64,000 nt of DNA, taken from the NCBI GenBank assembly GCA_964549165.1, contig CAZJUH010000001.1, positions 863-64,862 on the forward strand, given 5' to 3'. Positions 7,718 to 59,888 of the stretch are shown piece after piece. Under the pieces are notes generated by a model that searched no databases, was not told where the DNA came from, and saw only the letters and a list, made by a program, of their open reading frames with translations. Numbering within the stretch: the stretch's first letter is position 1; every line of letters begins with the position of its first letter. The position numbers and the translations under genes are program-made. The stretch is from an uncultured Gammaproteobacteria bacterium (GTDB lineage: Bacteria > Patescibacteriota > Microgenomatia > UBA12405).

Positions 7718-7776
7718 TGTAGATTGATAATTGAAGATTGTAGATTGTAGATTGTCCGCCAGAGGCGGAAAGATTG
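7718..7776. repeat. Heptad (AGATTGN)n array fused to a CCGCCAGAGGCGG hairpin (intergenic, between the 7TM gene and the pilin array)
   Basis: ttgtagattgataattgaagattgtagattgtagattgtCCGCCagaGGCGGaaagattg. Related heptad arrays lie at 19527-19557, 23984-24009, 24992-25034, 25222-25248, 27341-27375, 27487-27520, 29071-29100, 30364-30392, 37307-37340, 39709-39745, 45676-45710, 46657-46677, 54921-54955 and 59521-59544. CDS-embedded relatives lie at 3361-3400, 6488-6511 and 44801-44836. Confidence 0.8.
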
Positions 7777-7838
7777 TTTTCGTGGCGTATTATAACACCC
7801 TTTTATCCTAGTTTATTGTATAATTTGTTTATTAAAAT

Positions 7839-8162
7839 ATGAATAAATTTTTACTGGCTGAAGTCAATATAAGTAGCACCCCCTTAGGTACTGGTAAAAA
7901 TCTCGGGAATGTCTACAAAGATCCCGCCACTTTAGTTACTTTGATAGTCAGAAATAGCCTAACTGTCGCCGGAATTATTCTATTGGTTCTCATAATCGCC
8001 GGTGGTTTTATGATGATTTCTAGTGCTGGTTCCGGAGATCAAAAAAAAGCCGCCTCGGCTAGCGCCATGATTACCGATGCCGCCATTGGCTTCTTGGTAA
8101 TTTTTCTTAGTTACTTTATAATTCAAATCATAGAAGTTATTACCGGATTAACTATTTTATAA
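7839..8162 (+). CDS. TrbC/VirB2-like T4SS pilin-family small membrane protein (paralog 1 of 6)
   Basis: 107 aa. Two hydrophobic helices flank a short charged loop (AGGFMMISSAGSGDQKKAAS ... AIGFLVIFL). The same architecture and motif recur in the next five genes. Confidence 0.5.
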   Translation: MNKFLLAEVNISSTPLGTGKNLGNVYKDPATLVTLIVRNSLTVAGIILLVLIIAGGFMMISSAGSGDQKKAASASAMITDAAIGFLVIFLSYFIIQIIEVITGLTIL

Positions 8163-8165
8163 ATA

Positions 8166-8498
8166 ATGATTGGCATTTTTGGCACTATCACCAACCCCAC
8201 CAATTACGGCACTGCCGGTGACAAGGGCCAGGGACTTTTCACCTTTTTAAGCAACATTTTTAAATTTGCCGCTGTCGCTGGTGGTCTTTACATGATTGTT
8301 CAAATTATTCTAGCTGGCTTTGAATACATCAGTGCCTCAGGTGATACCAAAAAAACCGAAGCCGCTTGGGCCAAAATTTGGCAAAGTATTCTCGGTCTTG
8401 TCATTATTTCTTCTGCTTTTATTATTGCTGGTATCGTTGGTCGCTTCACTGGTATTGATATTCTCAATCCTGTTATAAAAGGCCCCGGTCAACCATAA
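8166..8498 (+). CDS. TrbC/VirB2-like pilin-family paralog 2
   Basis: 110 aa. Motif ILAGFEYISASGDTKKTEAAWAKIWQSILGLVII. Tightly packed with its neighbours (gaps of 1-4 nt). Confidence 0.5.
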   Translation: MIGIFGTITNPTNYGTAGDKGQGLFTFLSNIFKFAAVAGGLYMIVQIILAGFEYISASGDTKKTEAAWAKIWQSILGLVIISSAFIIAGIVGRFTGIDILNPVIKGPGQP

Positions 8499-8499
8499 T

Positions 8500-8841
8500 A
8501 TGAAATTAATTGCCTACACGCTCACAGGTCCCGGTAAAAATCCCACCGGTGGGGTCGAAGCCACCACCATGCTGGAAAAGCTCGCCAGCAATCTAATTGG
8601 CATTCTTACTATTGTTGCTGTCCTCTTTTTTGTCATTCAAATTATTTTTGCTGGTTATAGTTTCATCTCTTCCGGTGGCGACGAAAAAATGATGGAGACT
8701 AGCCGTAAAAAACTTACCAATGGTATTCTTGGTTTAGTTATCGTTATTCTCGCTGTTGGGATTGGCTCACTTATCGCCAAGCTTCTGGGACTTGAAAATA
8801 TTTTTAGTCTCAACGAAATGTTTATTAAAATGGGTTTATAA
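8500..8841 (+). CDS. TrbC/VirB2-like pilin-family paralog 3
   Basis: 113 aa. Motif IFAGYSFISSGGDEKMMETSRKKLTNGILGLVIVIL. Confidence 0.5.
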   Translation: MKLIAYTLTGPGKNPTGGVEATTMLEKLASNLIGILTIVAVLFFVIQIIFAGYSFISSGGDEKMMETSRKKLTNGILGLVIVILAVGIGSLIAKLLGLENIFSLNEMFIKMGL

Positions 8842-8853
8842 AATTAAAAAACT

Positions 8854-9177
8854 ATGCCAATATGCAATCCACTCTTAAAAAATTGTAACAACGTTACTGA
8901 CCCCTTAGGTTACACTAATAACGTTCTCCAGTCGGCATTTTCCATCTTGTTTGTTATTGGTATTATCAATTTTATTTGGAATTTTATGATGGGTGCTTAT
9001 AGTTTAATCAGTCAAGGGGGAGAGAAAGAAAAGGTAGAAACTGCCAAACATAAATTCACTAATGCTTTTCTTGGCCTCGTACTCATGTTTGTCATCTTTG
9101 CCATTCTCAAGCTGGTTGGATATATTACCGGTATCAAGGGTCTTGATACTCTCCAGCTAAGCTGGCCTACCCTTTAA
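8854..9177 (+). CDS. TrbC/VirB2-like pilin-family paralog 4
   Basis: 107 aa. Motif MMGAYSLISQGGEKEKVETAKHKFTNAFLGLVLMFVIF. Confidence 0.5.
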   Translation: MPICNPLLKNCNNVTDPLGYTNNVLQSAFSILFVIGIINFIWNFMMGAYSLISQGGEKEKVETAKHKFTNAFLGLVLMFVIFAILKLVGYITGIKGLDTLQLSWPTL

Positions 9178-9230
9178 AATAATCCATTTCCCTGTTAAAC
9201 TTTATTAATTTATTAAAAATTTAAAAAAAT

Positions 9231-9602
9231 ATGTCTTCAATCAAAAACAAGCTTCAATTTGCCCTCTTAGCCATTCCCGCCTTTGCCGCAGAGACAATTG
9301 ATCTCGCTCCAAAAGATAATTTTGCCGGTTTAGCTGATTTAAGTTTTAGTGGTATTATTTCCGGAGCCGTCTCCCTAATTCTTTTAGTGGTCGCTCTAGT
9401 TTTCTTTTTTATCCTTATCACAGGCGGTTTAAAATGGGTTATGTCCGGTGGTGACCAAAAAAATGTCGAGGCGGCTCGCAATCAAATCACCAACGCTCTT
9501 ATTGGCCTGGCCATTGTCTTTGCTACTTTCGCCATTATGAAATTAATTGAAACCCTTTTTGGCATCACCATCCTCAGTAATCTTACTATCAAGCCTTTTT
9601 AA
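9231..9602 (+). CDS. TrbC/VirB2-like pilin-family paralog 5 (with cleavable signal peptide)
   Basis: 123 aa. Signal peptide LLAIPAFAAE, then LKWVMSGGDQKNVEAARNQITNALIGLAIVFATF. A rho-independent terminator follows. Confidence 0.5.
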   Translation: MSSIKNKLQFALLAIPAFAAETIDLAPKDNFAGLADLSFSGIISGAVSLILLVVALVFFFILITGGLKWVMSGGDQKNVEAARNQITNALIGLAIVFATFAIMKLIETLFGITILSNLTIKPF

Positions 9603-9625
9603 GAAAATTCGAATTAAATCCCAAA

Positions 9626-19505: not shown

Positions 19506-19554
19506 TATATCATCGTAAAGCTTCTCTTTTTTAGACTTTAGGCTTTAGATTTTT

Positions 19555-22479: not shown

Positions 22480-22636
22480 GCTTCTATTCTAAAGCATCTT
22501 TATCCTTGCGGTTATATTTCGGTTATTCTGCGGTTATTTTTCTACTAAATCTGTCATAACTTGTCATACACTCTCCACAAAACGTGAAAATCCGTCATTA
22601 TTCTAAATAGGGGAATATCTCAGAAAGTAGTAATTA

Positions 22637-23853: not shown

Positions 23854-25263
23854 TTAAATGAGCCCTAGTATTATCACCAAAAGCCAAGTGTTTTGGGGGA
23901 GTGTTAGCCAGTAATGATCAAAAAATCCCGTTATCCCTACAATCACCCAGATCCACCAAAATCTATTTTTTGATAATTTTATAATTGTAGATTGTAGATT
24001 GTAGATTATTATTGCTATCCCTAGTATCCCTATTTCACTCCAGGCGAGCAATAGAATATTGTGCACCGGCTGCATCCAGTAAAAATTACCCACTTTATAT
24101 TTCGGTAAATTAACCACAAAATTCCCGGCTCCCACTCCAAAAAGTGGATTTCTTTTTATCATTTTTATCGCCGATACCGCCAGCACTTCTCTTTTTTCAA
24201 TACTATTTGTATCCCAGCCGCCTACAAAATCGCTAATTCGATAATTAACGCTAATTACCCCCAAAATTATCAAAACAACCCCTATTCCTAACAGCAATCT
24301 TCCTATCAACAACCTGTACGGAACATCTAATGGTTTGTACGGAACATCTAATGGTTTGTACGGAACAGTCGCGACTGTTCCCTTCATTTTGATTTTTTTA
24401 TCTTTTAGGATTTCTTCAACTATCAGCATCCCTACCGTCAACACCCATACCACCCTACTTCCCGACAGGACAATTCCCATCATCGCACTCCAGTTTACTA
24501 TCCAGTAAAATATTCTATTAAAATACCCCTGTCCGCCATAACTGCGAAGCTGTTGGCGGAACCACCACCACGCCAGCAGTAAAAATCCGGCCAGGGAGTT
24601 TGGGTGGGAAAAAGTCCCGTAAACTCTTATCCACGCCTGATCAAAAACCCTGAATTGAGCTATCCCAATTCCCCCATAAGTGAATCTTCTCTCTCCAAGC
24701 CACCACCAAATTCCATTTAAGCTTCCACCTTTTACAACCTGGGCCAAACCCAAAAAAGCCTCTATTATAATCCACCAAGGGACTATCTTCATTAAATAGT
24801 TAATAATTTCATTTTTATTTTTACCAAGCAGTTTAATCGTCAACCCCCACTGACCAATCCGAAACCATCTGTAAAGTGCCACCCATTTCGCCGTCGCCAA
24901 AATTATATTTATTCCCACAAACATGGTCAGTATTAAGTTTTTGAAATTTAAAATATTTTGGATTTTTAATTTTTTATTCTTAATTGAATACTGTAGATTG
25001 AAGATTGAAGATTGTCGATTGAAGATTGATGATTTATTTATTACCCACAAAAGCCACATCAAATCCGTTAAGTAAAAAATTATTGACAAATAGTCAATTC
25101 TGATTCCTACCACACTACTTTCTTCCAGCCAAAAATGTCTCCCCAGTTGTGTTGGAATCAACAATAACCAAATTAACAGAAAGATATTTTCGATTTTAGT
25201 CTTTTTTTTCTTTTTATTGAAAATTGAAGATTGTCGATTGAAGATTTGTTTAATTCTCTCCAC
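23854..25263 (-). CDS. O-antigen ligase / polymerase-family (Wzy_C) membrane protein
   Basis: 469 aa, polytopic. Contains a family-typical exported loop with the motif FGVGAGNF. Also contains an in-frame 21-bp tandem repeat and heptad-repeat insertions. The true start may lie downstream of 25263. Confidence 0.55.
   Translation of the reverse strand: MERIKQIFNRQSSIFNKKKKKTKIENIFLLIWLLLIPTQLGRHFWLEESSVVGIRIDYLSIIFYLTDLMWLLWVINKSSIFNRQSSIFNLQYSIKNKKLKIQNILNFKNLILTMFVGINIILATAKWVALYRWFRIGQWGLTIKLLGKNKNEIINYLMKIVPWWIIIEAFLGLAQVVKGGSLNGIWWWLGERRFTYGGIGIAQFRVFDQAWIRVYGTFSHPNSLAGFLLLAWWWFRQQLRSYGGQGYFNRIFYWIVNWSAMMGIVLSGSRVVWVLTVGMLIVEEILKDKKIKMKGTVATVPYKPLDVPYKPLDVPYRLLIGRLLLGIGVVLIILGVISVNYRISDFVGGWDTNSIEKREVLAVSAIKMIKRNPLFGVGAGNFVVNLPKYKVGNFYWMQPVHNILLLAWSEIGILGIAIIIYNLQSTIIKLSKNRFWWIWVIVGITGFFDHYWLTLPQNTWLLVIILGLI
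24316..24382. repeat. In-frame 21-bp tandem repeat (2.3 copies) ending in a perfect 20-bp palindrome
   Basis: (GTACGGAACATCTAATGGTTT)x2 then GTACGGAACAGTCGCGACTGTTCC. GGAACAGTCGCGACTGTTCC is a perfect palindrome. The repeat encodes VPYKPLD repeats in the O-antigen-ligase-like protein. Confidence 0.8.
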
Positions 25264-25345
25264 GCCCTATCCTAACACATTTTGTTCTCTTTGGGCTTTT
25301 CCGCCAAAGGCGGATCAGCCTCTGGCTGAAGATTTTAGACTTTTT

Positions 25346-27183: not shown

Positions 27184-27324
27184 TTAGACTGTTAATTTTT
27201 TTCTACCCTTAGTTCTTCTCTTTTTAATTATCTTTCGACCATTGGCCGTTTCCATTCTTTTTAAAAAACCATGAACTTTGGCTCTTTTTTTCTTTTTTGG
27301 TTGAAATGTCCCTTTTTGTTTCAT
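27184..27324 (-). CDS. rpmH: 50S ribosomal protein L34
   Basis: Not in the ORF track (46 aa). The minus-strand translation is [46 protein letters not shown], a canonical L34. Confidence 0.85.
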
Positions 27325-27530
27325 GCGGTAATTCTACCATCTTTTCTCTTATTTTAGATTTTAGAATTTAGATTTTTTCACTTTCTTCAATTTGACCTCT
27401 TTTCAAATGTGGAAAACTACTTTATGATGATGTGGATAACCCAAAAGGATCTCTTGCCTCGAGACCATTTTTTTACCTGTTTTTAGTTATTTTTTGCTTT
27501 TAGTCTTTAGTCTTTAGACTTTTTTCTATT
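27325..27530. promoter_or_regulatory. oriC part 1 / dnaA promoter region (rpmH-dnaA intergenic)
   Basis: Divergent rpmH/dnaA spacer. DnaA box TGTGGATAA at 27431-27439 (reverse complement of TTATCCACA); near-box TGTGGAAAA at 27410-27418; AT-rich heptad-repeat arrays at 27341-27375 and 27487-27520. Confidence 0.6.
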
Positions 27531-28895: not shown

Positions 28896-29177
28896 ACTTA
28901 TCCACATTTTTAAGGAGATTATCCACCTACTTATTCACTTATTTTACTGATTTTTTCCACCGAAACTTTCCCAAATCCCACTCGCTTACTATAAGCCAAA
29001 AAATATTTAATCAAAACCAATTTTAGGTTAAATTCAACTTACAAACACTAATTTATTAAAAAATATTTGGATTTTTAGGCTTTAGGTTTTAGATTTTTTC
29101 TCTTTCTCCACTTTTCCCCCAGCCCTATTAACAATACTACTATTTTCTAAACCCCCTATCTGTTAATATATAGGTCA
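28896..29177. promoter_or_regulatory. oriC part 2 (dnaA-dnaN intergenic) with clustered DnaA boxes
   Basis: TTATCCACA at 28898-28906, TTATCCACC at 28919-28927, TTATTCACT at 28930-28938. An AT-rich tract and a heptad array follow at 29071-29100. Confidence 0.65.
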
Positions 29178-30296: not shown

Positions 30297-30398
30297 CCAT
30301 ATTATTATGTTTACCAAGCCGAAGCTTTAGCGCAGGCTGGCCTGTTAGGATTCAAGATTAGTTTTTTTAGGTTTTAGAATTTAGATTTTTTCTGTTTT

Positions 30399-34825: not shown

Positions 34826-37288
34826 TTAAGTCGCATCATCGTTTCCAAATAGCTTGTCGTATGTCATCTTTGCCTCATCTTTTTTTGCTTCTGCTGTCTT
34901 TATTTCTTCTTTGGGCTTTAGGCTTTCTTCTATTTTTGTCGTAAATTCTGCCTTTGTTTTTTTGGCGAGCTGTGGTGGTTGTGGAATCACTGGCTCTTTT
35001 TGTTGGTTAATAAACAGGGGTTTTGTCGGTGCTTCGAATTTTGGCAGGGGCGGAAGTGGGGGCGTCGATTTAAATAATTCTTGATATTTGGGTAAAGATC
35101 CACCGGTATTTTTATCCTCTTCGCTATTGTTTTTTTCACTACTTACCTCCTTAAGCTCTTCTTCTGTTTTCTTATTTTCTTCTTCTTCCATTTGGGTGAC
35201 TCTTTTTAGAAGCGCCTCTTCCGGTGATTCCTCCACCTCAGACTTAAAGAGCAATGTTGGCTTCTGTTCCTCCTCTTTAGGCTTTTCCACCAAAGGCGGA
35301 TCAGCCTCTGGCTGAAGATTTTCTTCCGGCTTTACCTCAATTAAAACTTCTTTTACTGGTTCTGTCACCACCGTTTTCTCTTCCTCTTTTTCTTCTTTTT
35401 TTACCAGGCTGGTATCGACGTCAGTCGATATAATAGCCTGGCTTTCTTTCTTCACCAGTGCTGCCTGTTTTTCGGCAATTTTTTGCCGAAGTATCTCTTC
35501 TGGATTTGAAGTAATTAATTTATGTTCTTCTTCTGAGGCGATTACCTGAATTGCCACGTGATTTTGTCCGGCAAAAAATATTCCCTCTCCTTTATCTGCT
35601 GACAAGAGCAGTTGTTTTTCCCCTTCAGATAGGTAAAACGTTTCTCCAATTAGGTCGATAGCGGCACTGTGTTGTTTGAGCAGTATTTGAATTGAGCTGT
35701 TTGTCACTATTTCTTTTCCATAAGGAGTGTTTAAAAAGTCGTCAACATCTTGGGTGATTGTTGTTACTCCGAGATAATATTTTCGACCTCTTTTAATAAT
35801 TCCCCTGAGAAATGCCGCCGAATCATCATATTGCATCAAATACCAAGCCTCATCCACCACCAAAATTCTCTTTTTAAGTTCTTTTTTCACAATTGTCCAA
35901 ATGTAGTCAAGTATTATGTGCATTGCCACTGGTCGTAAACTTTCTTCAAGGTTGCGAATTCCAAAAACCACAAAGCTATTATTTAAGTTTACGGTTGTTT
36001 TTTGATTAAAAATTCCCGCAAAGGAACCCTTAATATATTTTTCCAGTCTTGCCGCCAGGCTTTTCGCCTTTTCTTCTTCGGCTCCAATCAGGGCTTTGTA
36101 TAAGTCTTCAATTAGAGGCGCTTCTCGGGTCTGGGTCTCGGGATCTGGTGATATTCCCTTGGCCTTATAGGCCTCCATAATAGACCTATCTAAAATTGAT
36201 TCCTCGATAGGATCCATGGCCCCGAGCATTATTTTAAACATTTTATGTAAGGTTAGGATTTTGTCATTTAAGGCGTTTTCCCCCTCTTCTGTTACCAGCG
36301 ACAAATCAAAAGGATTGATTTTTGAAGCTTCTCCATAGCCAAAGGCAATATATTGGCCTCCCACCGATTCGGCTAGACTCTTATATTCATTCTCTGGGTC
36401 AATAACAATAATGTCGGTTCCGAGCATTAGTGACCTCATTGCTTCGAGTTTGATCATATATGATTTACCGGCACCGGCCGAGGCAAAAACCACCGAGTTG
36501 TAGTTTAGCATCGAAAATCTATCAAAAATTACGAGAGATCCGTTATGTTCATTGATTCCAAACATAATTCCCTTATCATCTGATAGGTCCGACGATACAA
36601 AAGGAAAAGTACTGGCGAGGGAGGTTGTATCCATATTTCTGGTAATGTTTAGTCTATCGGAACATATCGGTAAAGTCGTTATAAAACCCTCCTCCATTTG
36701 TAGACTGGCTTTTTTGGAAATAATCATCAGCGCTCCTAGTCCCGATTCCAAGTTTTTGGTTGAAGTATCAAGTTCTTCTTTGGTTTTTGCCGACAAGGTC
36801 AGATATAGGCCAAACTGGAAAAATCTTTCTTCTCCCTTGACAAGGTCTGCTTGCAAGGTCAGGGCATCTTCAAGTTTTGCCTGAGTTGCGGGGTTTACTA
36901 TTTTACCTCTTTGGATATCGGTACTTAGCTCTGCCTCCATTTCGGCAATTTTTCGCCTTAGATCATCAAGAATTTCTTTCCCGTCGGTTGGATAAATAAA
37001 CATCGAAATTTTTAATGACGCATCAAAATTAATTAATGTTGATAACCAATTAAGTCCCACAAATCTTGGATATCCAGCCACAAAACAGGTTCGGTAATAT
37101 TTGTTATCAATTCTGATGTGGTTAAAATCAACTTCAATTGCCGAGGGGGCAATAATGTCTTTAATTGATACCAGTCCCTCCACAAATTGCTTCGCCTCGC
37201 CAACAGTGGGCTTTGCCTCAATCGTAGGGCTGGAAACCGACTTGTCGGTTTTAATAGCCCTATTTTTTATTAAATCTAATATTTTCAT
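34826..37288 (-). CDS. VirB4/TrbE-family type IV secretion ATPase with an added Pro/Glu/Lys-rich C-terminal tail
   Basis: 820 aa. Walker A VVFASAGAGKSYMIKLE, Walker B region RILVVDEAWYLM, and conserved ...GRKYYLGVTTITQDVDDF. The C-terminal ~230 aa is low-complexity and contains the repeat-encoded ESQAIISTDVDTSLVKKE and NLQPEADPPLVEKPKEE. Confidence 0.75.
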   Translation of the reverse strand: MKILDLIKNRAIKTDKSVSSPTIEAKPTVGEAKQFVEGLVSIKDIIAPSAIEVDFNHIRIDNKYYRTCFVAGYPRFVGLNWLSTLINFDASLKISMFIYPTDGKEILDDLRRKIAEMEAELSTDIQRGKIVNPATQAKLEDALTLQADLVKGEERFFQFGLYLTLSAKTKEELDTSTKNLESGLGALMIISKKASLQMEEGFITTLPICSDRLNITRNMDTTSLASTFPFVSSDLSDDKGIMFGINEHNGSLVIFDRFSMLNYNSVVFASAGAGKSYMIKLEAMRSLMLGTDIIVIDPENEYKSLAESVGGQYIAFGYGEASKINPFDLSLVTEEGENALNDKILTLHKMFKIMLGAMDPIEESILDRSIMEAYKAKGISPDPETQTREAPLIEDLYKALIGAEEEKAKSLAARLEKYIKGSFAGIFNQKTTVNLNNSFVVFGIRNLEESLRPVAMHIILDYIWTIVKKELKKRILVVDEAWYLMQYDDSAAFLRGIIKRGRKYYLGVTTITQDVDDFLNTPYGKEIVTNSSIQILLKQHSAAIDLIGETFYLSEGEKQLLLSADKGEGIFFAGQNHVAIQVIASEEEHKLITSNPEEILRQKIAEKQAALVKKESQAIISTDVDTSLVKKEEKEEEKTVVTEPVKEVLIEVKPEENLQPEADPPLVEKPKEEEQKPTLLFKSEVEESPEEALLKRVTQMEEEENKKTEEELKEVSSEKNNSEEDKNTGGSLPKYQELFKSTPPLPPLPKFEAPTKPLFINQQKEPVIPQPPQLAKKTKAEFTTKIEESLKPKEEIKTAEAKKDEAKMTYDKLFGNDDAT
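35402..35442. repeat. 40-bp nested palindromic element encoding SQAIISTDVDTSLV (copy in virB4)
   Basis: ACCAGGCTGGTATCGACGTCAGTCGATATAATAGCCTGGCT: outer arms CCAGGCT/AGCCTGG, inner ATCGAC/GTCGAT. Other copies: 21422-21462, 38429-38467, 38471-38510, 38522-38561. Confidence 0.85.
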
Positions 37289-39614: not shown

Positions 39615-39746
39615 TAGCTATTTTAGCTAAATTAGCCATTTTTGTCAATATAAAAACAATTTAATCCCATTAAACCCCTTGGTCATATATAATCCTCTTA
39701 TATTCATTTTTCTAGAATCTCGAATCTAGAATCTAATCTCTATCCT

Positions 39747-44500: not shown

Positions 44501-45463
44501 TTATCTGTTATTAAGCCATCTTTCTACATCAATCGCCGCTTTAGCCCCGGATCCGGCCGCCACAATTGCCTGTCGGTAACTTTCATCCATACAGTCCCCC
44601 GCGGCAAAAATTCCTTCAACTGAAGTCATTGACGGATACTCAATATTTTTACTAACCACTACATATCCATTTTCTTTTAATTCAATTAGATTCTTCGCAA
44701 AACCTGTCGCTGGAATTCTTCCAATTGCCACAAACAACCCATCAATTTCCAGAGTTTTTTCTTCTCCTGTCTTCAAATTTTTTACTCTAATATTTTGTAA
44801 TTTGTCATTAGTAATTGGTAATTGGTAATTGATTTCCGTCACCACTGTATCCCAAATTATTTCTATAGCCTTATTTTCCATCACTCTTTTAGCTTCTATT
44901 GGGCTGGCCCGCAATTCGCACCGACGGTGAAACATATAAACTTTTTTACAAATTTTTGCTAAATAATGAGCTTCTTCACAGGCGACATTACCGCCTCCCA
45001 CCACCGCCACTGTTTTATCTTTAAAAAATAACCCATCGCAGGTGGCACAACCCGAAACTCCTCTGCCAATTAATTCCTTCTCTTTAGGTAAATCCAGCCA
45101 CTTTGCTCCCGCCCCGGTAGCCACAATAACCGCCCTAGTTTTCAATATTTCTCCATTATCCAATTTTATTTCAAATCTAGAATCTTGTTTCTCGTCTCTA
45201 GAATCTATTTTTGTGACATTGCCATATTTAATCTCTACCCCTAAATTTTTTACCTGTTGCTGCATATCCATCATTAATTTCAAACCGCCAACGCCATTGG
45301 GAAAACCGGGATAATTCTCCACTACTGTCGTTACTGTCAATTGTCCACCTGGAATATTACCCGAAATTACCACTGTTTTTAAAAACGCTCTCACATTATA
45401 AATTGCCGCCGTCAGTCCCGCTGGTCCTGAACCAATGATAATCGTATCGTATATCTGTTCCAT
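44501..45463 (-). CDS. trxB: Thioredoxin-disulfide reductase
   Basis: 320 aa. FAD motif GSGPAG, redox CATCDG, NADPH-binding GGGNVA. Contains an in-frame (CAATTAC)3 heptad insertion. The 5' end is duplicated upstream. Confidence 0.9.
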   Translation of the reverse strand: MEQIYDTIIIGSGPAGLTAAIYNVRAFLKTVVISGNIPGGQLTVTTVVENYPGFPNGVGGLKLMMDMQQQVKNLGVEIKYGNVTKIDSRDEKQDSRFEIKLDNGEILKTRAVIVATGAGAKWLDLPKEKELIGRGVSGCATCDGLFFKDKTVAVVGGGNVACEEAHYLAKICKKVYMFHRRCELRASPIEAKRVMENKAIEIIWDTVVTEINYQLPITNDKLQNIRVKNLKTGEEKTLEIDGLFVAIGRIPATGFAKNLIELKENGYVVVSKNIEYPSMTSVEGIFAAGDCMDESYRQAIVAAGSGAKAAIDVERWLNNR

Positions 45464-45711
45464 ATTTATAATTCGATGCTAAATAATAAGGCTGGTTTAC
45501 CCGTCCGAAGCTCAATAGCGAAGGAGGGTCCTGAACCAATGATAATCGTATCGTAAATATTTTTATTTTCGTCCATGTTCCTATTTTACAGTAAAAGTCA
45601 AATATGTTTAAAAACTTATTTCTTCTCTTTAGTTTTTATAATTTAGAATTTTTTGTTTTTTTTATTAGTTACTCATTGATAATTGAAGATTGTCAATTGA
45701 TAATTGAATAG

Positions 45712-46632
45712 ATGTCCCACGAAACTCGCAAAGTTTTTAAATTTGTTTTGAAAATTATTTCCAATCGTACCGGCTTTTTTTTCTGGACCTTTGTTCGTTT
45801 TATTTCCGCCATTCTTCCTTTAATTACTATCTATTTATATTCTTTAGTTATTAAACAATTAGAAACAAATTTATCCTTATCTGCAGTTGTTTTAACCATA
45901 ATTCTTACCTTTATCATTCGAATTATCGATAATTATACCCGTCTTATTTCTATAACCCGTCTCGAGGATGTTATCAGTAATATTGGTTTTGATATTCACA
46001 ATTATTTTTTATCCGATCTGGCTTCTAAAAGTAAGGAAGATCGTCATGCTGCTGTCCAAGCCGTTCGTAATTTTTCCGATGCTAGCAGTGTGACTTTAAA
46101 TTTAATCAAACAACCAGGAATAGACAGTGTTGTTTCTTTTTTATTTATTCCTTTTATTCTACTTTCCCAAGATTTTCCCTCTTTTATTATTACCATTGCC
46201 TACATTGTCATTTATGAGGTTATCGATTTATACACCACTCAACGTTATTTCCAACTTAAGGATATTCAAAATTCTAAAACCGAAGCTTATTATGCCAAAC
46301 TTCAGGATAGTAACGATTTTGATTTGGAACAAACTTCTTATAATCGCCACTTCAATCGTCTCTGCAAATGGGGTTTTACTGAATGGTTTGCTCTCCAAAA
46401 TTCTGCTGTCTTTTTTTATTGTCTAAATTTATTCTATTTGGTTTATCAGGTTTCTACTAATCAAAAAGATATCTCTGATTTAGTTTTAATTATGGGTTAC
46501 GTTACCCAAACTCAAACTTTTCTCAATTCTTTTTCTCAAATCAAAGATTCCCTTACCGACATGAATGTTGGTCTCAAACATTTGGCTAAAAATGAAGCTA
46601 TCTCCGCCATCGATCTAGAAGATTTAATCTAA
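45712..46632 (+). CDS. ABC-exporter transmembrane-domain-like protein lacking a nucleotide-binding domain (possible truncated gene)
   Basis: 306 aa with about 6 TM helices and an ABC-TMD-like N-terminus. The ORF stops where an NBD would begin. Confidence 0.4.
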   Translation: MSHETRKVFKFVLKIISNRTGFFFWTFVRFISAILPLITIYLYSLVIKQLETNLSLSAVVLTIILTFIIRIIDNYTRLISITRLEDVISNIGFDIHNYFLSDLASKSKEDRHAAVQAVRNFSDASSVTLNLIKQPGIDSVVSFLFIPFILLSQDFPSFIITIAYIVIYEVIDLYTTQRYFQLKDIQNSKTEAYYAKLQDSNDFDLEQTSYNRHFNRLCKWGFTEWFALQNSAVFFYCLNLFYLVYQVSTNQKDISDLVLIMGYVTQTQTFLNSFSQIKDSLTDMNVGLKHLAKNEAISAIDLEDLI

Positions 46633-46684
46633 TGTAAAATAGTCTAATTATTATTTTTTTAGTCTTTAGATTTTTTCTTTCTCT

Positions 46685-47611
46685 ATGCCCGAACTCCCCG
46701 AAGTTGAGGTAGTTAAACTCTTTTTGGAACAAAAACTACTTCATAAAACCATTACCGATTTGGAGATTTTAAATAAAAAACCTGCCCGCCATGGTGGGTC
46801 TTTTATTGGCGATCCAAAAAAAGTTATTAATCAAGAAATAGTTAAGTTTTCTCGGATTGGTAAACAACTTTCTATCTACTTATCTAATCAACTAATCCTC
46901 TTAGTTCACCTTAAAATGACTGGCCAGCTAGTTTTCTGTCCCCCTTCATCAAGGGGGATTAAGGGGGTTTTGCTTGGTCATCCCACTAAAAATGCTTTAG
47001 ATAAATTACCCAACAAATCCACTCGTCTGATTTTCCATTTTAGCCCCCCTTCATCCCTGTCCGCCTTTGGTGGAAAGGGGGATACGGGGGTTTTGTATTT
47101 TAACGATCAGCGTAAATTTGGTTGGATAAAATTATTGTCCCCAGAAGAACTAATTGAATCTCAAAAAAATCTTGGTCTCGACATTTTTGACCCCCAATTT
47201 TCTCCAAAATATATTTTTAACCAGCTTCAAAAATCCCATCGTCCGGTCAAAATTGTGCTTTTAGACCAAAATTTCTTTGCTGGTATTGGCAATATTTATG
47301 CTAATGATGCCTTATTTTTAGCTGGTATTCATCCCAAAACTCCATCTAATAAAATTACCTTAAAACAGGCTAAATTAATCCATAAATTTTTAATTGACAT
47401 TATGAAACAGTCGGTCTTAGCCGGTGGTTCCACCGCTCGTGACAATAAATATGTCCGGCCTGACGGTACCTTTGGTCAAAATCAATTCTTTTTTCGGGTT
47501 TACGAGCGAAAAGGAGAGCCTTGCCTCAAGTGTGGCACCAAGATTGAATATTTTAAACTCGGTGGCCGCGGCACCTTCTTCTGCCCCTACTGTCAATCAT
47601 CTAAAATCTAG
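46685..47611 (+). CDS. mutM: Formamidopyrimidine-DNA glycosylase (Fpg/MutM)
   Basis: 308 aa. N-terminal catalytic MPELPEVE, H2TH, and C-terminal zinc finger CLKCGTKIEYFKLGGRGTFFCPYCQ. Two GC-rich hairpin element insertions lie in the N-domain. Confidence 0.85.
   Translation: MPELPEVEVVKLFLEQKLLHKTITDLEILNKKPARHGGSFIGDPKKVINQEIVKFSRIGKQLSIYLSNQLILLVHLKMTGQLVFCPPSSRGIKGVLLGHPTKNALDKLPNKSTRLIFHFSPPSSLSAFGGKGDTGVLYFNDQRKFGWIKLLSPEELIESQKNLGLDIFDPQFSPKYIFNQLQKSHRPVKIVLLDQNFFAGIGNIYANDALFLAGIHPKTPSNKITLKQAKLIHKFLIDIMKQSVLAGGSTARDNKYVRPDGTFGQNQFFFRVYERKGEPCLKCGTKIEYFKLGGRGTFFCPYCQSSKI
46938..47094. repeat. Two GC-rich hairpin elements inserted in-frame in mutM
   Basis: CCCCCTTCATCAAGGGGGATTAAGGGGG (46938-46972) and CCCCCCTTCATCCCTGTCCGCCTTTGGTGGAAAGGGGGATACGGGGG (47044-47094). 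The second embeds a CCGCCTTTGGTGG hairpin. Confidence 0.75.
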
Positions 47612-53544: not shown

Positions 53545-55676
53545 TGTCATCTCAAAGCAAGGTGGAAACTCTGAATATTGCCGGCATGCATTGCGCTTCC
53601 TGCGCCCTGCTTATCAAAAAATCTCTGGAATCTGTCAAAGGTGTCGAAACTGCCTCGGTTAACTATGCTTCCCAAAAAGCCGTTATTAAATATGATTCAA
53701 ATCAAACTGATATCCGAGATCTGACATCTGCAATCACCAAAAGTGGCTACCGGGTTGTTGCTCAAAAGGTCGATGAAGCCGCCGAAAGCCGCATTTATCG
53801 CACCCGCTTTTTTCTTTCTTTATTCCTAACTCTCCCTCTGTTCCTTTTTATGTTTTTTCCTTTTCCTCTCGAATCTAGAATCTCGTTTCTAGTCTCTCTT
53901 TTCTTAACTACTCTCAACGTTTTCATTATTGGTCGCAATTTTTATCTTGGTTTTTGGGCGGCCTTGAAACTAAAAACCTCAACTATGGATTCTCTTATCG
54001 CCATTGGCACTTTTTCTGCCTATCTTTTTAGTCTCGTAACTCACACCCACCATTATTTTGAAGTCGCTGCTTCCCTCGTCACTTTTGTGACCTTAGGTAA
54101 ATGGCTCGAGTCCCTGGCGAAGGCCAAAACTTCAGCCGCTCTCAGTAAATTAGTCGACTTATCTCCAAAATTCGCTCATTTAAAAAATGGTAAAGAGTTT
54201 AAGGATATTCCCGTAAATACGGTAAAAATAAACGATATTCTTTTAGTAAAATCCGGTGAAATTATTCCTCTGGATGCTACTGTTGTCACCGGTTCTTCTT
54301 CAGTCGATCAATCCTCATTAACCGGTGAAAGTATCCCTGTCGATTTAGTTGCTGGCGACAAAGTTTTTGCCGGCACTCAAAATTTAACTGGTGTTTTAGA
54401 AATAAAAGTAACTTTTGATTCAAACAATTCTCTGCTATCTAGAATTATCAAAATGGTTGACGAGGCTCAAAGTACTCGGGCTCCCATTCAAAATTTCGCC
54501 GACAAAATTTCTTCCATTTTTGTTCCTACTGTTTTAATAATTGCCACCATAACTTTTATTTTTTGGTTTTTTATTCTTCGTTCGACTTTAGAATTTAGTC
54601 TCTTGACCTTTATTTCGGTCATTGTCATTGCCTGTCCCTGTGCTCTGGGTCTCGCCACTCCCACCGCCGTCATGGTGGCTACTGGACTTGCCGCCAAGTT
54701 CGGAATACTAATCAAGGGCGGGGAAGCTCTTCAAAATGCGGTTGATATCAATGCCATTGCCTTTGACAAAACTGGCACCCTCACCACTGGCACTCCAGTT
54801 GTAACTGGCTTTAAAAATATCAGCCAAATTTCTGACTCAAAAATATTAGAAATAGCCCATGCTCTTGAAATAAATTCAACCCATCCTTTGGCAAAGGCAA
54901 TTATCAATTTTTGTAAATCAAAAGGGATTGAAGATTGTAGTCTGAAGATTGAAAATTTCAAAACTCTTCCGGGCTTTGGTCTTAGTGGTGAAATTGGTAA
55001 AGATAAATATTTTCTAGGCAAAACTAAATCTTCCCAAATCGAACTCACCAAAAATAATAAATCTTTGGCGACTTTTATTATCAAGGACACGGTTAAACCA
55101 GAATCAATTTTGGCCATTAAAAAACTGCAACAAAATAATTATCACGTTTATTTAGTTTCTGGTGATAGTCGTGCCAATTCTATCGCTATTGCCTCTGAGT
55201 TATCTATTCCTTCTGATCATGTTTTTGCTGATGTTTTACCCGATCAAAAGGCCGAAATTATTAAAAATCTGCAAAATTCCGTCATTGCGAGCGAAGCGAA
55301 GCAATCTTTACATATCGCCTTTGTTGGCGATGGTATCAACGACTCTGTTGCTCTGACTCAATCAGATCTGGGTATTGTCATGGGTTCTGGTTCTGATATT
55401 GCCATCGAGTCGGGCAATGTCGTTATTATGAACAACAATCTCCAAAGCCTTATTACTCTTTTTGATATTTCCAAAACTTCTCTCAAAAAGATAAAGCAAA
55501 ATCTTTTCTATGCCCTCATTTATAATCTCATTGGCATTCCCATCGCCGCCGGTCTTTTAAATCCTCTTGGCGTCACCCTCCGTCCTGAGTTTGCCGCTCT
55601 GGCCATGTCATTGTCTAGTGTCAGTGTGGTTTTAAATTCTTTATCTCTTAATCGTTACCGCTTTAAGGTAAAATAA
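53544..55676 (+). CDS. copA: Copper-translocating P1B-type ATPase
   Basis: 710 aa. N-terminal HMA with GMHCASC, TM CPC motif (IACPCALGLATP), DKTGTLT, GDGINDS. Contains a heptad-repeat insertion (EDCSLKIENF). Confidence 0.9.
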   Translation: MSSQSKVETLNIAGMHCASCALLIKKSLESVKGVETASVNYASQKAVIKYDSNQTDIRDLTSAITKSGYRVVAQKVDEAAESRIYRTRFFLSLFLTLPLFLFMFFPFPLESRISFLVSLFLTTLNVFIIGRNFYLGFWAALKLKTSTMDSLIAIGTFSAYLFSLVTHTHHYFEVAASLVTFVTLGKWLESLAKAKTSAALSKLVDLSPKFAHLKNGKEFKDIPVNTVKINDILLVKSGEIIPLDATVVTGSSSVDQSSLTGESIPVDLVAGDKVFAGTQNLTGVLEIKVTFDSNNSLLSRIIKMVDEAQSTRAPIQNFADKISSIFVPTVLIIATITFIFWFFILRSTLEFSLLTFISVIVIACPCALGLATPTAVMVATGLAAKFGILIKGGEALQNAVDINAIAFDKTGTLTTGTPVVTGFKNISQISDSKILEIAHALEINSTHPLAKAIINFCKSKGIEDCSLKIENFKTLPGFGLSGEIGKDKYFLGKTKSSQIELTKNNKSLATFIIKDTVKPESILAIKKLQQNNYHVYLVSGDSRANSIAIASELSIPSDHVFADVLPDQKAEIIKNLQNSVIASEAKQSLHIAFVGDGINDSVALTQSDLGIVMGSGSDIAIESGNVVIMNNNLQSLITLFDISKTSLKKIKQNLFYALIYNLIGIPIAAGLLNPLGVTLRPEFAALAMSLSSVSVVLNSLSLNRYRFKVK

Positions 55677-56757: not shown

Positions 56758-56758
56758 T

Positions 56759-57409
56759 TTACTCGTACCCCAATAGTTTTTTCAGTTCTTTTATCTCCAT
56801 TACCACAATCTGTCTCTTGTCATTATCAATCACCTTATTCTTTTCTAGTTTTAGCATTTGGAGTGTCACCGTTTCTCTGGTCAGTCCGGTCAGAGTGGCA
56901 ATTTGTTTGTGAGTAATTTTTACTTTTATACTTACTTCTTTTCCCCTGCTTACCCCATATTCTCTGGCCATTGAGTAAATTAATCCCGCCACCTTTAGAT
57001 AAGCATTTCCGGAAATAAGCTGCGATACATAAGTAGTCAAATCCAAAAATTTTTCCATAACCAGATTGTTTAATTCACTTTCTAGTTTTGGATTTTCTTT
57101 TAAAAATTTTTCAAATTCTTCTGCTGGTGCCATCCAGGCTTCAACTGGTGTCATTGTTTCCACAAAATGACGACTTTTAAGCCCTGTTTTGGCGCCGATT
57201 AGGGACAAATAAAACCAGGGGTTAAAAACTTGGATTCCACTTTCTTTTTCTTCAGCTCTGACATCGTAGACTCGCAGATACCCACTCTTGACATAATAAA
57301 CGCCCTTAAAATTTTCATTGCTTTCCACTACTATTTGCCCTTTTTTATATTTTTTTAGGGGATATTTAGTAAAAAATTCAACGAGCTTTTTCTTTGTTTC
57401 TTCTTTCAT
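56759..57409 (-). CDS. Crp/Fnr-family transcriptional regulator
   Basis: 216 aa. cNMP-binding beta-roll and C-terminal HTH (KQIATLTGLTRETVTLQMLKLEKNKVI). Confidence 0.75.
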   Translation of the reverse strand: MKEETKKKLVEFFTKYPLKKYKKGQIVVESNENFKGVYYVKSGYLRVYDVRAEEKESGIQVFNPWFYLSLIGAKTGLKSRHFVETMTPVEAWMAPAEEFEKFLKENPKLESELNNLVMEKFLDLTTYVSQLISGNAYLKVAGLIYSMAREYGVSRGKEVSIKVKITHKQIATLTGLTRETVTLQMLKLEKNKVIDNDKRQIVVMEIKELKKLLGYE

Positions 57410-57459
57410 ATGTTTAATGGCAGTACTACTTAACTAGTACTACATCTGTAACAATTCTA

Positions 57460-59217
57460 TCACAATTTTTCCAGTTCGTTTTGCCACTCTTCAATCGTCT
57501 TAAAACTCTTTTGCCAAAACTTAGGCGAGCCAATATCAACTCCAGCTCTTTTTAAGACTATTTGCGGATCCTCACTCCCACCGCTCTCCAAAATATTTTC
57601 TATTATTTTTATCCATTTCTTAGGTTCTTTTTTGTAGTTGGCAAAGAGAGCATATGACACCAGTTCGCCAAAATTATAGGCGTAGCAGTAAAAAGGACTT
57701 TCAAAAATATGGGAAATATAGCTCCATTCATATTTAAACAAGGGGTCAATCTGAACACTGCCTCCAAACTGTTCTTTTAAAGTTTTTAAGTAGAGTTTTG
57801 ACAAGTTTTCACTACTTATCCCTTTTTCAATCTCCTCGTGGGCTTCGATTTCAAATTTAATAAAATAATTTTGTCGACAAATCGTAGCGTAGGCATCGGC
57901 CATTTTATCTGACAGCCATGCCCTTTTTATTTCTTTGTCTTGTTCGCTCTTCATCATTTTTTCAAATAAAATAAGTTCTGAGAGGGTGGAGGCTGTTTCC
58001 GCCAGGGGTAAATTTGCTTGTTGGCTTGAAGGGTAGTGTTTGTTGGCGTAGAGTGAATGAATTCCGTGTCCCAGCTCATGAGCCAGAGTACTAATATCTC
58101 GAGATTTACCGGTAAAATTTAAAAGTATGTATGGTGTAATTTTCGGGGCCACGGTGGCACAAAAGGCTCCGCCTCTCTTGTTTTTGCCGGGCATCACATC
58201 AATATGATTTTCTTCAATAATTTTTTTGGCTTTACTTTCAAAATCCGGTGAAAATTCTTTTAGAGTACTCAGTACTTGCCTCTTTGCTTCTTCATAAGTT
58301 ATCTTTTTATCTTTACTTTGGAGTGGGGCGTAAATATCAAAGCGCCTAAGCTTTTTCAGTCCGAGCTCCTTTGCCTTCCACTTAAAATATCTTTGAAAAA
58401 TATCAATATTATTACTACAGACCTTTAGTAGGCTCTCTACCGCCGCGTCAGGAACATGGTTAGCCCAGTTTCTTACTGAGAAAGGGGACCTGTGGCCTCG
58501 TAGTCTGGCTTCGTAGCCCCAGTCTTTGACGATTCCCTGATAAATTGCAAAGAATTTATCTAAATGATCCTTCTGTTTTTTTAATAATGTCTTATAAGCT
58601 CCCTCTCTAATTTTAGCTTTTGGATTATAAACCAAAGCCAAAAGTTCCGACTGAGATTTAATATGTTTAATTTTATTACCTACTTTAAGGTCATATTCAA
58701 ATTCGGTTTCAATCATTTCTCTCAACTCTCCGAGTACCCCCACTCCATTGACATCTTTGTGGTCAATTATCTGTTCTTCTCTTTCGTTGAGGCTGTACCT
58801 TGCCCCTTCACGGCTTCTTTTAAGGCCATATTCGAGATCAGGTATAGTCGAAAAAAGTCTTTTTGCGTTTGTATCGTCGAGCAATGGTTCTCTTTTTCCT
58901 TGTAACCACAAACCCAGTTTTGTGGCAATATCGCTAATTTTTAAACCGAGATTATCAATCCGGCTTTTCATTAGCTTTGCTTTTTGATTTTTTTGATCGA
59001 CTGCCTCTATTAGTTCCGGAAGATAGGCCAGTTTAGCCACTTTTACTCCCATTTTTTCGTTGAATTCTAGCATCTCTCCAAATTCCTTCTGGCTCATCGC
59101 CGGCTTCACTCTTTCAACCCATTTCTCCAGTGTTTTAATTTCGCTCTCAATCTCATTATATAAATCATCAAATTTATCTATTGGCATTATGTCGTCAAGA
59201 TTCCATTTCATGTCCAT
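57460..59217 (-). CDS. pepF: Oligoendopeptidase F (M3B)
   Basis: 585 aa. HELGHGIHS zinc site plus a downstream E. Confidence 0.85.
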   Translation of the reverse strand: MDMKWNLDDIMPIDKFDDLYNEIESEIKTLEKWVERVKPAMSQKEFGEMLEFNEKMGVKVAKLAYLPELIEAVDQKNQKAKLMKSRIDNLGLKISDIATKLGLWLQGKREPLLDDTNAKRLFSTIPDLEYGLKRSREGARYSLNEREEQIIDHKDVNGVGVLGELREMIETEFEYDLKVGNKIKHIKSQSELLALVYNPKAKIREGAYKTLLKKQKDHLDKFFAIYQGIVKDWGYEARLRGHRSPFSVRNWANHVPDAAVESLLKVCSNNIDIFQRYFKWKAKELGLKKLRRFDIYAPLQSKDKKITYEEAKRQVLSTLKEFSPDFESKAKKIIEENHIDVMPGKNKRGGAFCATVAPKITPYILLNFTGKSRDISTLAHELGHGIHSLYANKHYPSSQQANLPLAETASTLSELILFEKMMKSEQDKEIKRAWLSDKMADAYATICRQNYFIKFEIEAHEEIEKGISSENLSKLYLKTLKEQFGGSVQIDPLFKYEWSYISHIFESPFYCYAYNFGELVSYALFANYKKEPKKWIKIIENILESGGSEDPQIVLKRAGVDIGSPKFWQKSFKTIEEWQNELEKL

Positions 59218-59225
59218 ATTTTACT

Positions 59226-59888
59226 CTATCTCAGCCGAGCAAATTCTTCTATTAGTTTTTCTTTTTCACTTTTAGTTAATTTAAAATCGCCCTTCGTCTC
59301 GCCGTAGCTTTTTGCGGAGGCGGACCTTTGTCTATCAATTTCATACATCACTATCCCAGCAGTTACTGATATATTTAGACTCTGCACCATTCCCTTCATT
59401 GGGATATAAATTTTTTCGTCGGCTCCTTTTATGGCTTCTTCAGAAAGTCCTCGATGCTCGTTCCCTAGTACTATGGCAATTTTTTGAAGTTTGTCCGCCA
59501 AAGGCGGATCCGCCTCTGGCGGAAAGATTGTAGATTGAAGATTGATAGTCTCTTTGTCGAGAACTGTGGCATAAATTTTGTATCCGTTTTTTCGAAGCTG
59601 CCCATAGCATTCGTCAATATTTTTAAATATTTTAAAGCTCAGCCATTTGTTGGCGCTGGCCGAGGAGGCCTTGCCAATTTTTTTTGGATTAATGGCTTTT
59701 TCTTTTGAATAAACTAGATATATTTTTTGAAAGCCAAAGGCATCGGCGCTTCGCCACACCGCCGCCGCGTTATGCGGATCGGCAATATTTTCCAGTACTA
59801 TCACCCCTTCCTGTCGATTTTCAATCATTCTTTTAATTTTTCTTTGCCTCGCCGTAGCTTCAGCGTAGGCAGGTCCATTTTTTATCAT
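59226..59888 (-). CDS. SpoU/TrmH-family RNA 2'-O-methyltransferase
   Basis: 220 aa. Motifs IVLGNEHRGLS and SLNISVTAGIVMYE. Carries three repeat-element insertions (ETINLQSTIFPPEADPPLAD; PAYAEATAR; SASAKSYGET). Confidence 0.75.
   Translation of the reverse strand: MIKNGPAYAEATARQRKIKRMIENRQEGVIVLENIADPHNAAAVWRSADAFGFQKIYLVYSKEKAINPKKIGKASSASANKWLSFKIFKNIDECYGQLRKNGYKIYATVLDKETINLQSTIFPPEADPPLADKLQKIAIVLGNEHRGLSEEAIKGADEKIYIPMKGMVQSLNISVTAGIVMYEIDRQRSASAKSYGETKGDFKLTKSEKEKLIEEFARLR

Follow-up and report, generated by a model that had tools for sequence, protein, structure and literature searches.

Strand-oriented heptanucleotide repeat arrays and a separate 30-nucleotide hairpin element in a genome of the candidate phyla radiation

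Dispersed tandem repeats of 7-nt units have a decades-long record in cyanobacteria, Xanthomonas, Burkholderia and Beggiatoaceae, and they have no accepted origin or function (PMC4679880; PMC4692102). They include the short tandemly repeated repetitive (STRR) heptamers found in heterocystous cyanobacteria and the 'long simple sequence repeats' (LSSRs) of Mrazek; heptamers are the dominant class of long simple sequence repeat (SSR; PMC4679880; PMC4692102). Direct repeats of TAACTGA occur in marine Beggiatoaceae, Cyanobacteria and Bacteroidetes (MacGregor 2015, PMC4679880). In the Beggiatoa genome they point toward the start codon, and copies internal to open reading frames (ORFs) are found only reversed, encoding short peptides at the protein periphery, which is the same stop-codon logic as described below (PMC4679880). 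The GGGAATC repeats of Xanthomonas and the GGGGA(T/C)T repeats of Nostoc have G-rich, quadruplex-forming units (PMC4692102). Here we analyse heptanucleotide (heptad) arrays in a 64-kb stretch of contig CAZJUH010000001.1 (the window), together with a 30-nt double hairpin, E30, that adjoins heptads there.

The DnaA protein of the window has identical counterparts on a 192-kb NCBI contig and on a Logan contig from SRR13007705, and its closest named relatives are Candidatus Shapirobacteria (Microgenomates, candidate phyla radiation (CPR)/Patescibacteria). Heptamer repeats thus extend to a CPR genome so compact that each base of a spacer comes at a cost. The window has a GC content of ~37%; simple ORF tiling covers 94% of it and 5.9% is intergenic. 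Pfam annotation of 54 of the 62 window ORFs agrees with the gene names given in an earlier reading of the letters and translated ORFs (the sequence-only reading): RimK-like ATP-grasp paralogues, type IV secretion system (T4SS) pilins, FtsH, DUF4012, Wzy_C, Jag/KhpB, YidC, RnpA, DnaA, DnaN, VirB4/TraG-like proteins, 5'-3' exonuclease, TrxB, MutM, CopA and SpoU/TrmH. An Rfam scan of the window gave no matches. The reading that we favour, with a confidence modestly above even, is that the arrays are STRR/LSSR-class heptanucleotide repeats in a Candidatus Shapirobacteria genome and act as landing pads for the separate element E30, being neither parts of a composite element nor a start-codon signal.

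Two unit families on one chromosome strand

Arrays were called with Tandem Repeats Finder (TRF) and with our own scan of periods 3-15, using Markov-3 sequences and dinucleotide shuffles as controls. TRF returned ~20 period-7 arrays, and arrays were present at the places given by the sequence-only reading. In the scan, period 7 alone rose above the Markov-3 controls (8 regions versus 0), other periods giving 0-1. When only intergenic DNA was compared with its dinucleotide shuffles, 8 period-7 arrays stood against 0.10 expected, and other periods again gave 0-1. The patterns AGATTNNAGATT, TTTAGNNTTTAG and ATTGN3ATTGN3ATTG matched the window 12, 17 and 15 times, with 0.35, 0.57 and 0.01 matches expected. 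Chance in AT-rich DNA, which would have undone the claim that the arrays are non-random, was thus not borne out by the controls. The 5.9% of the window that is intergenic holds 8 of 15 arrays (binomial estimate from the counts, ~1e-6).

The arrays had been described as sharing an AGATT core. This holds for part of them; two families, TTTAGNY and ATTGNNN, describe the set better. The TTTAGNY family has 10 loci (3367, 6490, 19530, 27353, 27499, 29074, 30366, 37305, 46658 and 54587), each with 2-4 units that are nearly always followed by TTTTTT(C). The ATTGNNN family takes the forms ATTGTAG and ATTGAAG (equivalent to AGATTGW), ATTGATA and GTAATTG (TAATTGR). It contributes seven loci to the orientation count given below; the starts listed for it are 7716, 23984, 24983, 25216, 44797, 45675, 54926 and 59527. 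The arrays and hairpins of the window are:

3367-3397, plus strand: degenerate TTTAGAA/TTTAGAT-type array within the RimK-like ATP-grasp coding sequence (CDS) 3235-4224 (minus strand)
6490-6510, plus strand: two TTTAGNY units and a T-run, within the ATP-grasp CDS 5344-6846 (minus strand)
7716-7754, plus strand: 5.7 units of the ATTGNNN family (ATTGTAG/ATTGATA/ATTGAAG), in the spacer from which the 7TM_transglut gene and the T4SS-pilin array diverge
7755-7769, unstranded: 15-nt GC palindrome TCCGCCAGAGGCGGA, half of E30, in phase between heptads TAGATTG and AAGATTG
19530-19553, plus strand: TTTAGAC TTTAGGC TTTAGAT and a T-run, between the FtsH start and the DUF4012 stop; kept in the relative L122
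21626-21655, plus strand: E30 double hairpin within the DUF4012 CDS, in frame, with TTTAGGT TTT on the left and AGATTTT on the right
23984-24007, plus strand: perfect (ATTGTAG)x3.4, antisense in Wzy_C, encoding NLQSTI
24983-25034, plus strand: 7.4 units of ATTGAAG/ATTGTAG in a loop of Wzy_C, antisense; a 15-residue insertion relative to L122
25216-25246, plus strand: ATTGAAG-type array at the 5' end of the Wzy_C ORF; relatives lack this insertion
25300-25343, plus strand: intergenic E30 (25300-25329), then AGATTTT AGACTTT; the orthologous spacer of L122 has heptads without E30
27351-27376, plus strand: TTTAGAT TTTAGAA TTTAGAT, 26 nt upstream of the start of rpmH (27184-27324, minus strand); not kept in relatives L123 and L126
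27499-27522, plus strand: two TTTAGTC units and TTTAGAC, 8 nt upstream of the dnaA ATG; at this place L123 has TTTAGAT TTTAGAA and L126 has GC hairpins
29074-29097, plus strand: TTTAGGC TTTAGGT TTTAGAT, in the dnaA-dnaN spacer, whose AT-rich part is variable here and is bounded by conserved DnaA boxes on one side and a conserved 3' block on the other
30365-30389, plus strand: TTTAGGT TTTAGAA TTTAGAT, between the convergent stops of dnaN and a gene for a 119-residue protein; L122 has two TTTAGAC units
35286-35315, plus strand: E30, TCCACC variant, in frame in the C-terminal low-complexity region of VirB4; a decayed copy lies at the same site in L122
37305-37337, plus strand: four TTTAGNY units that separate the stop of the TraC-like gene from the start of VirB4
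39711-39735, minus strand: AGATTCT/AGATTCG array, 11 nt upstream of the 5'-3' exonuclease gene
44797-44831, plus strand: (GTAATTG)x3-5, antisense in trxB, encoding QLPITN
45675-45707, plus strand: ATTGATA/ATTGAAG/ATTGTCA array, 4 nt upstream of the gene at 45712
46658-46678, plus strand: TTTAGTC TTTAGAT and a T-run, 6 nt upstream of mutM
54587-54600, plus strand: TTTAGAA TTTAGTC, inside copA (a plus-strand gene)
54926-54957, plus strand: degenerate forward GATTGAA/GATTGTA array inside copA, in which unit changes remove stops (frame read by eye)
59494-59523, plus strand: E30, two perfect 15-nt palindromes, in frame in the SpoU/TrmH-like methylase gene, encoding PPEADPPLAD
59524-59545, plus strand: AAGATTG TAGATTG AAGATTG, antisense in the SpoU CDS, encoding INLQSTIF

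The sequence-only reading was right in placing arrays inside coding sequences (SpoU, three in Wzy_C, trxB, copA and the RimK-like genes), in placing two in the rpmH-dnaA spacer (27351-27376 and 27499-27522) and in seeing heptads next to a GC hairpin at 7716-7776 and 59494-59545.

Each of the 17 loci in these families is read on the plus strand, independently of the direction of the neighbouring gene. Arrays in this orientation lie upstream of plus-strand genes (dnaA, dnaN, mutM and the gene at 45712), upstream of minus-strand genes (FtsH, VirB4 and rpmH) and inside the plus-strand gene copA. The sole minus-strand array, at 39711, is of the AGATTCT type and outside the 17 loci. Skew at third codon positions (GC3 skew) of the plus strand was -0.26 to -0.51 for genes of either orientation and on both sides of dnaA, and the window forms one compositional domain. 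Array orientation follows the C- and T-rich chromosome strand, not the gene. A metagenome scan with a 29-mer query from E30 yielded at least 120 contigs (L129-L248) with at least 125 exact copies, 107 of them non-redundant among the matches listed. In these contigs the T-rich strand of the arrays coincided with the C-rich strand 27 times versus 9 (p=0.004, among the matches listed). In heptad-rich genomes of other phyla we found no array polarity (29 versus 27), and AGATTGW orientation in other phyla had no bias relative to skew (58 versus 50). The polarity probably reflects replication. Orientation by compositional strand speaks against regulation at the RNA level and favours an origin at the DNA level that is probably linked to replication.

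The arrays could also have a replication-linked function, for instance as places where one template strand is primed or unwound; both the polarity and the copies near dnaA would then be accounted for. It would fit the single orientation of the 17 loci in one skew domain, the same polarity in independent contigs and the array in the AT-rich part of the dnaA-dnaN spacer, which bears DnaA boxes. However, the origin-proximal sites of relatives are unrelated in sequence, ordinary spacers and coding sequences throughout the window also contain arrays, and the heptad-rich genomes of other phyla lack polarity. We regard such a role as very improbable.

Conserved DnaA boxes lie on either side of dnaA, at 27380-27445 and 28896-28960 (TGTGGATAA; three copies of TTATCCAC). 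GC skew and GC3 skew were strongly negative and did not change sign anywhere in the 64-kb window, including at dnaA. Either the origin lies elsewhere or skew does not mark the origin in this lineage. The rpmH-dnaA spacer had been called oriC; DnaA boxes are indeed found there and in the dnaA-dnaN spacer, but with no sign change of the skew the label is unproven.

The two families differ in their stop codons. A TTTAGNY unit has stops in 3+3 frames (both strands), and ATTGTAG in 3+0 (plus strand only). Perfect TTTAGNY arrays were found in spacers only; in coding sequence this family has at most two units, or degenerate ones. Perfect ATTG arrays inside coding sequences are antisense only, encoding 'INLQSTIF' in SpoU, 'NLQSTI' and 'SSIFNRQSSIFNLQ' in Wzy_C and 'QLPITN' in TrxB. 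Thus, TTTAGNY is confined to spacers because its stops fall on both strands, and ATTGWAG is tolerated antisense in protein loops because its stops fall on one strand only. Stop-codon selection filters where arrays survive, and stop-codon content alone predicts the permitted sites of each unit family.

The sequence-only reading had placed the arrays directly upstream of start codons. Since spacers are ~50 nt long, closeness to start codons is largely geometry, and arrays as often adjoin stops: those at 19530, 37305 and 25330 are nearer to the upstream stop than to the start, and one (30365) lies between convergent genes. A preference for start codons is also contradicted by orientation, which tracks the chromosome strand. 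We infer that the arrays have no dedicated start-codon, promoter or origin function.

Multimeric sites for a nucleic-acid-binding protein, either a global transcriptional or translational regulator or a nucleoid protein, are a related idea, and one that was proposed for the TAACTGA repeats of Beggiatoaceae (PMC4679880). Most spacer arrays do end 4-30 nt from a start codon, and within the unit TTTAG is invariant and position 6 free. Binding sites that serve genes are nevertheless hard to reconcile with an orientation set by the chromosome strand and with arrays that adjoin stops or lie between convergent genes. Heptads are not kept at the orthologous spacers of relatives with 84-86% DnaA identity, where real operators are. 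A scan of 20 kb for sigma-70-type promoters and terminators gave 68 promoter-like sites versus 51 expected and did not single out the spacer arrays, which left it uninformative. A 7-bp period also puts successive sites on different faces of the helix. Taken together, we consider binding sites to be quite improbable.

Arrays in related genomes

We compared ~20 kb per relative at syntenic loci from genomes with 93% (L122-L124), 86% (L125, L126) and 84% (L127, L128) DnaA identity, together with SpoU orthologues that included an empty (L249), a filled (L250) and an expanded (L252) site. Relatives at 93% carry TTTAGAC/TTTAGAT arrays in the same spacers (upstream of FtsH, Wzy_C, dnaA and VirB4 and downstream of dnaN), with other unit variants and numbers. 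At 84-86%, arrays are mostly absent. The array at the TraC/VirB4 junction is present in the window and L122 and absent from L125 and L127; it is a lineage-specific insertion, because the genes abut in the more distant relatives. Unlike the heptads, the DnaA boxes of both spacers and an 11-nt repeat upstream of DUF4012 are kept in all relatives. The latter, a periodic motif (GCGGTTATATTTCGGTTATTCTGCGGTTATTTTT, 22509-22542), is likely to be a true operator. The same spacer of the relatives has an extra GC-rich block of ~190 nt that is missing from the window and is possibly a small RNA.

At the SpoU site, L252 has a perfect (CAATCTA)(CAATCTT)x6 where other genomes have 3 units. Array expansion by slippage, one of the origins suggested from the letters, is thus directly visible. 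The heptad peptide NLQS(T/S)(I/N)F occurs without E30 in many Shapirobacteria SpoU proteins, the array being conserved with or without the hairpin. A given protein loop can hold different short elements in different lineages. In one loop of Wzy_C, the six CAATCTT units of the window are replaced by GTCTAAATTCTAAA in L122 and by a GC hairpin in L125; in the C-terminal loop, the perfect (CAATCTA)x3 of the window corresponds to a degenerate stretch of equal length in L122, whereas L125 has units of the TAACTGA type. The L125 heptads in Wzy_C (86% DnaA identity) are TAACTGA/TAACCGA and TAATTGA, at 5571-5600 and 5933-5958. The window Wzy_C gene also contains a perfect 21-nt tandem repeat of 2.5 copies (24315-24367), encoding VPYKPLD VPYKPLD VPY, which is a 16-residue insertion relative to all relatives.

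Array-length polymorphism between related genomes had been put forward as a sign of phase variation. None was seen in the 4-6 arrays compared: L122 matches L123 at 98.7% identity, with a single gap over 17.4 kb, and L124 at 99.99%, and the arrays are the same in each pair. In Haemophilus influenzae, 7-bp promoter repeats control hmw expression. The arrays might likewise be contingency loci in which a one-unit change switches a gene by frameshift (Wzy_C, SpoU, trxB) or by promoter spacing. Seven is not a multiple of 3, so that a one-unit change in a CDS shifts the frame, and three arrays lie in Wzy_C, a surface-polysaccharide gene. However, copy number does not vary between close strains, which is what marks phase-variable SSRs; the arrays are short (3-7 units), several sit in essential housekeeping genes (trxB, SpoU, copA), and all coding sequences seen are intact. 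Contingency loci are therefore a most unlikely explanation.

The RNHCP gene is present in L122, L125 and L127 and absent from the window (19506-19554 versus L122 1400-1825). In L122 it is bracketed by two identical TTTAGACTTTAGGCTTTAGAC arrays, of which the window keeps one. The gene was probably lost by recombination between heptad arrays, and arrays would thereby mediate deletions.

A genome-collection scan for (GATTGWA)n (GATTGWAGATTGWAGATTG) gave at least 120 loci, in Chloroflexota, Cyanobacteria, Bacteroidota, Planctomycetota, Desulfobacterota and Acidobacteriota. Among the matches listed, several genomes had more than one contig and there were no Patescibacteria. Heptads of many unit types abound at these loci, where 8 kb can hold up to 30 arrays. 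Because of this, and because the scan was seeded on the unit itself, (GATTGWA)n elsewhere is not evidence of a shared element.

E30, a hairpin element at heptad junctions

Five GC palindromes of the kind that the sequence-only reading had called Family A lie in the window, and all adjoin heptad sequence in phase. E30 is a 30-mer of two 15-nt palindromes, TCCGCCAAAGGCGGA and then TC(A/C)GCCTCTGGC(T/G)GA; at 7755 there is one 15-mer only. Read by eye, all six frames of the GGCGGA variant are free of stops; its length is 10 codons.

The SpoU gene offers an empty and a filled site. In coding orientation, L249 reads ACAATCTT^CAGTCTTCG and L250 reads ACAATCTT[30 nt]CAATCTTCG. The filled site is exactly 30 nt longer, has no target duplication, and both flanking heptads are already in the empty site. 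E30 therefore entered a pre-existing array.

This comparison bears on the earlier suggestion that heptads and hairpin form one composite element, which we phrase as a miniature mobile element of which the naked arrays would be copies minus the hairpin. Three window copies of E30 do share a heptad-like flank of 13 nt on the left and 7 nt on the right, (C)TCTTTRGGYTTT / E30 / AGATTTT; joining these flanks gives a typical naked array (TTTAGGY TTTAGAT TTT), and the DUF4012 copy of E30 is absent from L122. Yet L249 and L250 differ by the hairpin alone, many SpoU orthologues have the array without E30, and L122 has an array without E30 where the window spacer has one. Moreover, the flanks of the 107 independent copies among the matches listed are unrelated beyond TTY/E30/AAA. 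We consider a composite element improbable. The flank shared by the three window copies may reflect some hitch-hiking or gene conversion of a longer unit within the genome.

The preference of E30 for heptads could be quantified in the metagenome contigs, using 42,776 comparable T[TCG]^A[AG] junctions of the same contigs as control. Among the matches listed, the 7-mers on either side of E30 were identical in 9/107 copies, versus 0.18% of junctions (p=5e-13), and agreed within one mismatch in 19/107 (18%), versus 0.75% (p=1e-20). In E30-bearing contigs among the matches listed, period-7 arrays numbered 11.4 per 100 kb, versus 0.3-2.7 for the other tested periods. These results establish E30 as a separate element that preferentially uses heptad arrays as its integration site.

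An origin of the heptads as a 7-bp target-site duplication or excision footprint was rejected, since the empty SpoU site already has both units; in addition, 88/107 copies among the matches listed have no flanking 7-mer match, one mismatch allowed. Nor do the pieces resemble a miniature inverted-repeat transposable element or transposon, defined by terminal inverted repeats and a target-site duplication: on reading, the arrays have no such repeats, and E30 has no duplication.

E30 was found in AT-rich and GC-rich contigs alike (among the matches listed). Its orientation relative to GC skew there was biased too weakly for a conclusion, 47 versus 26 among the matches listed, and opposite to the window. 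Metagenome contigs have in-frame copies in ORFs for MiaB-like, ValS, GlpD-like and subtilase proteins, and copies inside tRNA genes in the T-loop (adjoining an intact duplicate tRNA-Asn), the D-loop and the anticodon loop. Sites in tRNA genes or fragments are L220 7873-8131, L213 2005-2252, L165 2223-2442, L129 5120-5375, L145 11835-12082 and L178 1-234; an intact duplicate tRNA, or a duplicated tRNA 3' end, is often right beside the interrupted one. In L132, L161, L170, L179, L197, L221, L222 and L241, a larger palindrome carries E30 in its loop (CCCTCCCCACT [E30] AAGTGGGAGGG), which suggests insertion into another repeat family.

Viral contigs of IMG/VR gave 0 matches to E30. Literature searches with E30 sequence strings returned unrelated primers only, and those on CPR palindromic repeats returned nothing specific; we found no description of E30 in the searchable literature. 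No transposase, REP-associated tyrosine transposase (RAYT; REP, repetitive extragenic palindrome), reverse transcriptase or Y1 enzyme was present among the 54/62 window ORFs annotated by Pfam.

Other GC-hairpin families occur in coding sequences and spacers of the lineage: CCCCCTTCATCAAGGGGG and a nested CCGCCTTTGGTGG hairpin in mutM (46940-46957 and 47040-47090), and CCCTCCTTGTCAAAGGAGGG; further sites are L123 7510-7570, L126 9745-9775 and 9935-9990, and L122 3770-3920. The DUF4012 gene of L122 contains TGTCAACTTCAGTTGACA repeats. The N-terminal domain of MutM is ~30 residues longer than the Pfam model.

Proposed explanation and likeness to known repeats

In the explanation that we favour, the units would be gained, lost and homogenised by slipped-strand mispairing; here expansion rests on the L252 array, and homogenisation is presumed. 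New arrays would arise at permissive sites, as the comparisons of relatives document, and purifying selection on stop codons would decide where they survive. The arrays would not be fast phase-variation switches. E30 would integrate without target-site duplication, preferably at junctions of heptad units, the arrays being its landing pads and not its arms. As side effects, spacers would vary in length, protein loops would acquire short peptide insertions, and arrays would recombine with one another.

Several observations weigh against this explanation. The spacers are locally T-rich (AT skew -0.14), which could partly account for the orientation bias. Two features of the TTTAGNY arrays hint at sequence constraint: their shared architecture, (TTTAGNY)n and then TTTTTTC, and the VirB4 array, where L122 differs from the window by four substitutions, each of them at unit position 6, TTTAG being invariant. 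A 45-nt array of the genome's typical unit appeared de novo in a Wzy_C loop within ~7% divergence of the DnaA protein. Finally, the same unit family recurs at many unlinked sites; slippage alone accounts for neither of these last two observations, and a copying or seeding mechanism is missing.

E30 is a concrete interaction partner of the arrays, and what recognises tandem heptamers becomes testable. A broader proposal, which we make tentatively and judge to have well under even chances, is that E30 is an undescribed ultra-small, stop-free mobile DNA of CPR and GC-rich bacteria that inserts without target duplication into tRNA loops and housekeeping ORFs, with a ~24-fold preference for heptad junctions, and that arrays and E30 are products or substrates of one strand-asymmetric single-stranded-DNA enzyme. 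If this were true, the link between E30 and heptads would supply the first mechanistic partner for the long-unexplained heptamer repeats of bacteria.

E30 resembles REPs, REPINs and the Rickettsia palindromic elements (RPEs) in being a short non-autonomous GC palindrome of high copy number without target-site duplication, and RPEs also in lying in frame inside ORFs. It is 30 nt long, in contrast to the 100-150 bp of RPEs. REPs carry a GTAG motif, which E30 lacks; moreover, REPs and REPINs are extragenic and go with a RAYT gene, whereas E30 lies in coding sequences and tRNA genes and no Y1 transposase was seen in the window.

The heptads share with STRR/LSSR repeats the head-to-tail 7-nt units (at least 3, by TRF and the period scan), an excess over composition (dinucleotide and Markov-3 controls) and one unit family recurring at many dispersed, mainly intergenic loci. 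Both have few copies per array and few families per genome. The units of STRR1-3 are CCCCAAT, TTGGTCA and CAACAGT, unlike the TTTAGNY, ATTGWAG and GTAATTG found here, so that the sequences of STRR1-3 are not matched. Also unlike that class, the host is a CPR bacterium with 94% coding density, and the orientation is strictly strand-fixed. With the TAACTGA repeats the arrays have in common 2-6 units, locations near start codons, related split units, stops in all forward frames and reversed ORF-internal copies. The window contains no array of TAACTGA, and TAATTGA and AGATTGA come nearest (the relative L125 has TAACTGA/TAACCGA). The units of the two sets differ by 1-2 bases, the second family of the window, TTTAGNY, has stops on both strands, and the arrays do not point toward the downstream start, reading plus upstream of plus- and minus-strand genes alike. 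The GGGAATC and GGGGA(T/C)T repeats, at >180 intergenic sites, are likewise genome-specific heptamer families (PMC4692102), but the window units are A/T-rich without G-runs. The heptads themselves belong to a known repeat class; the hairpin that targets them is the more unusual object.

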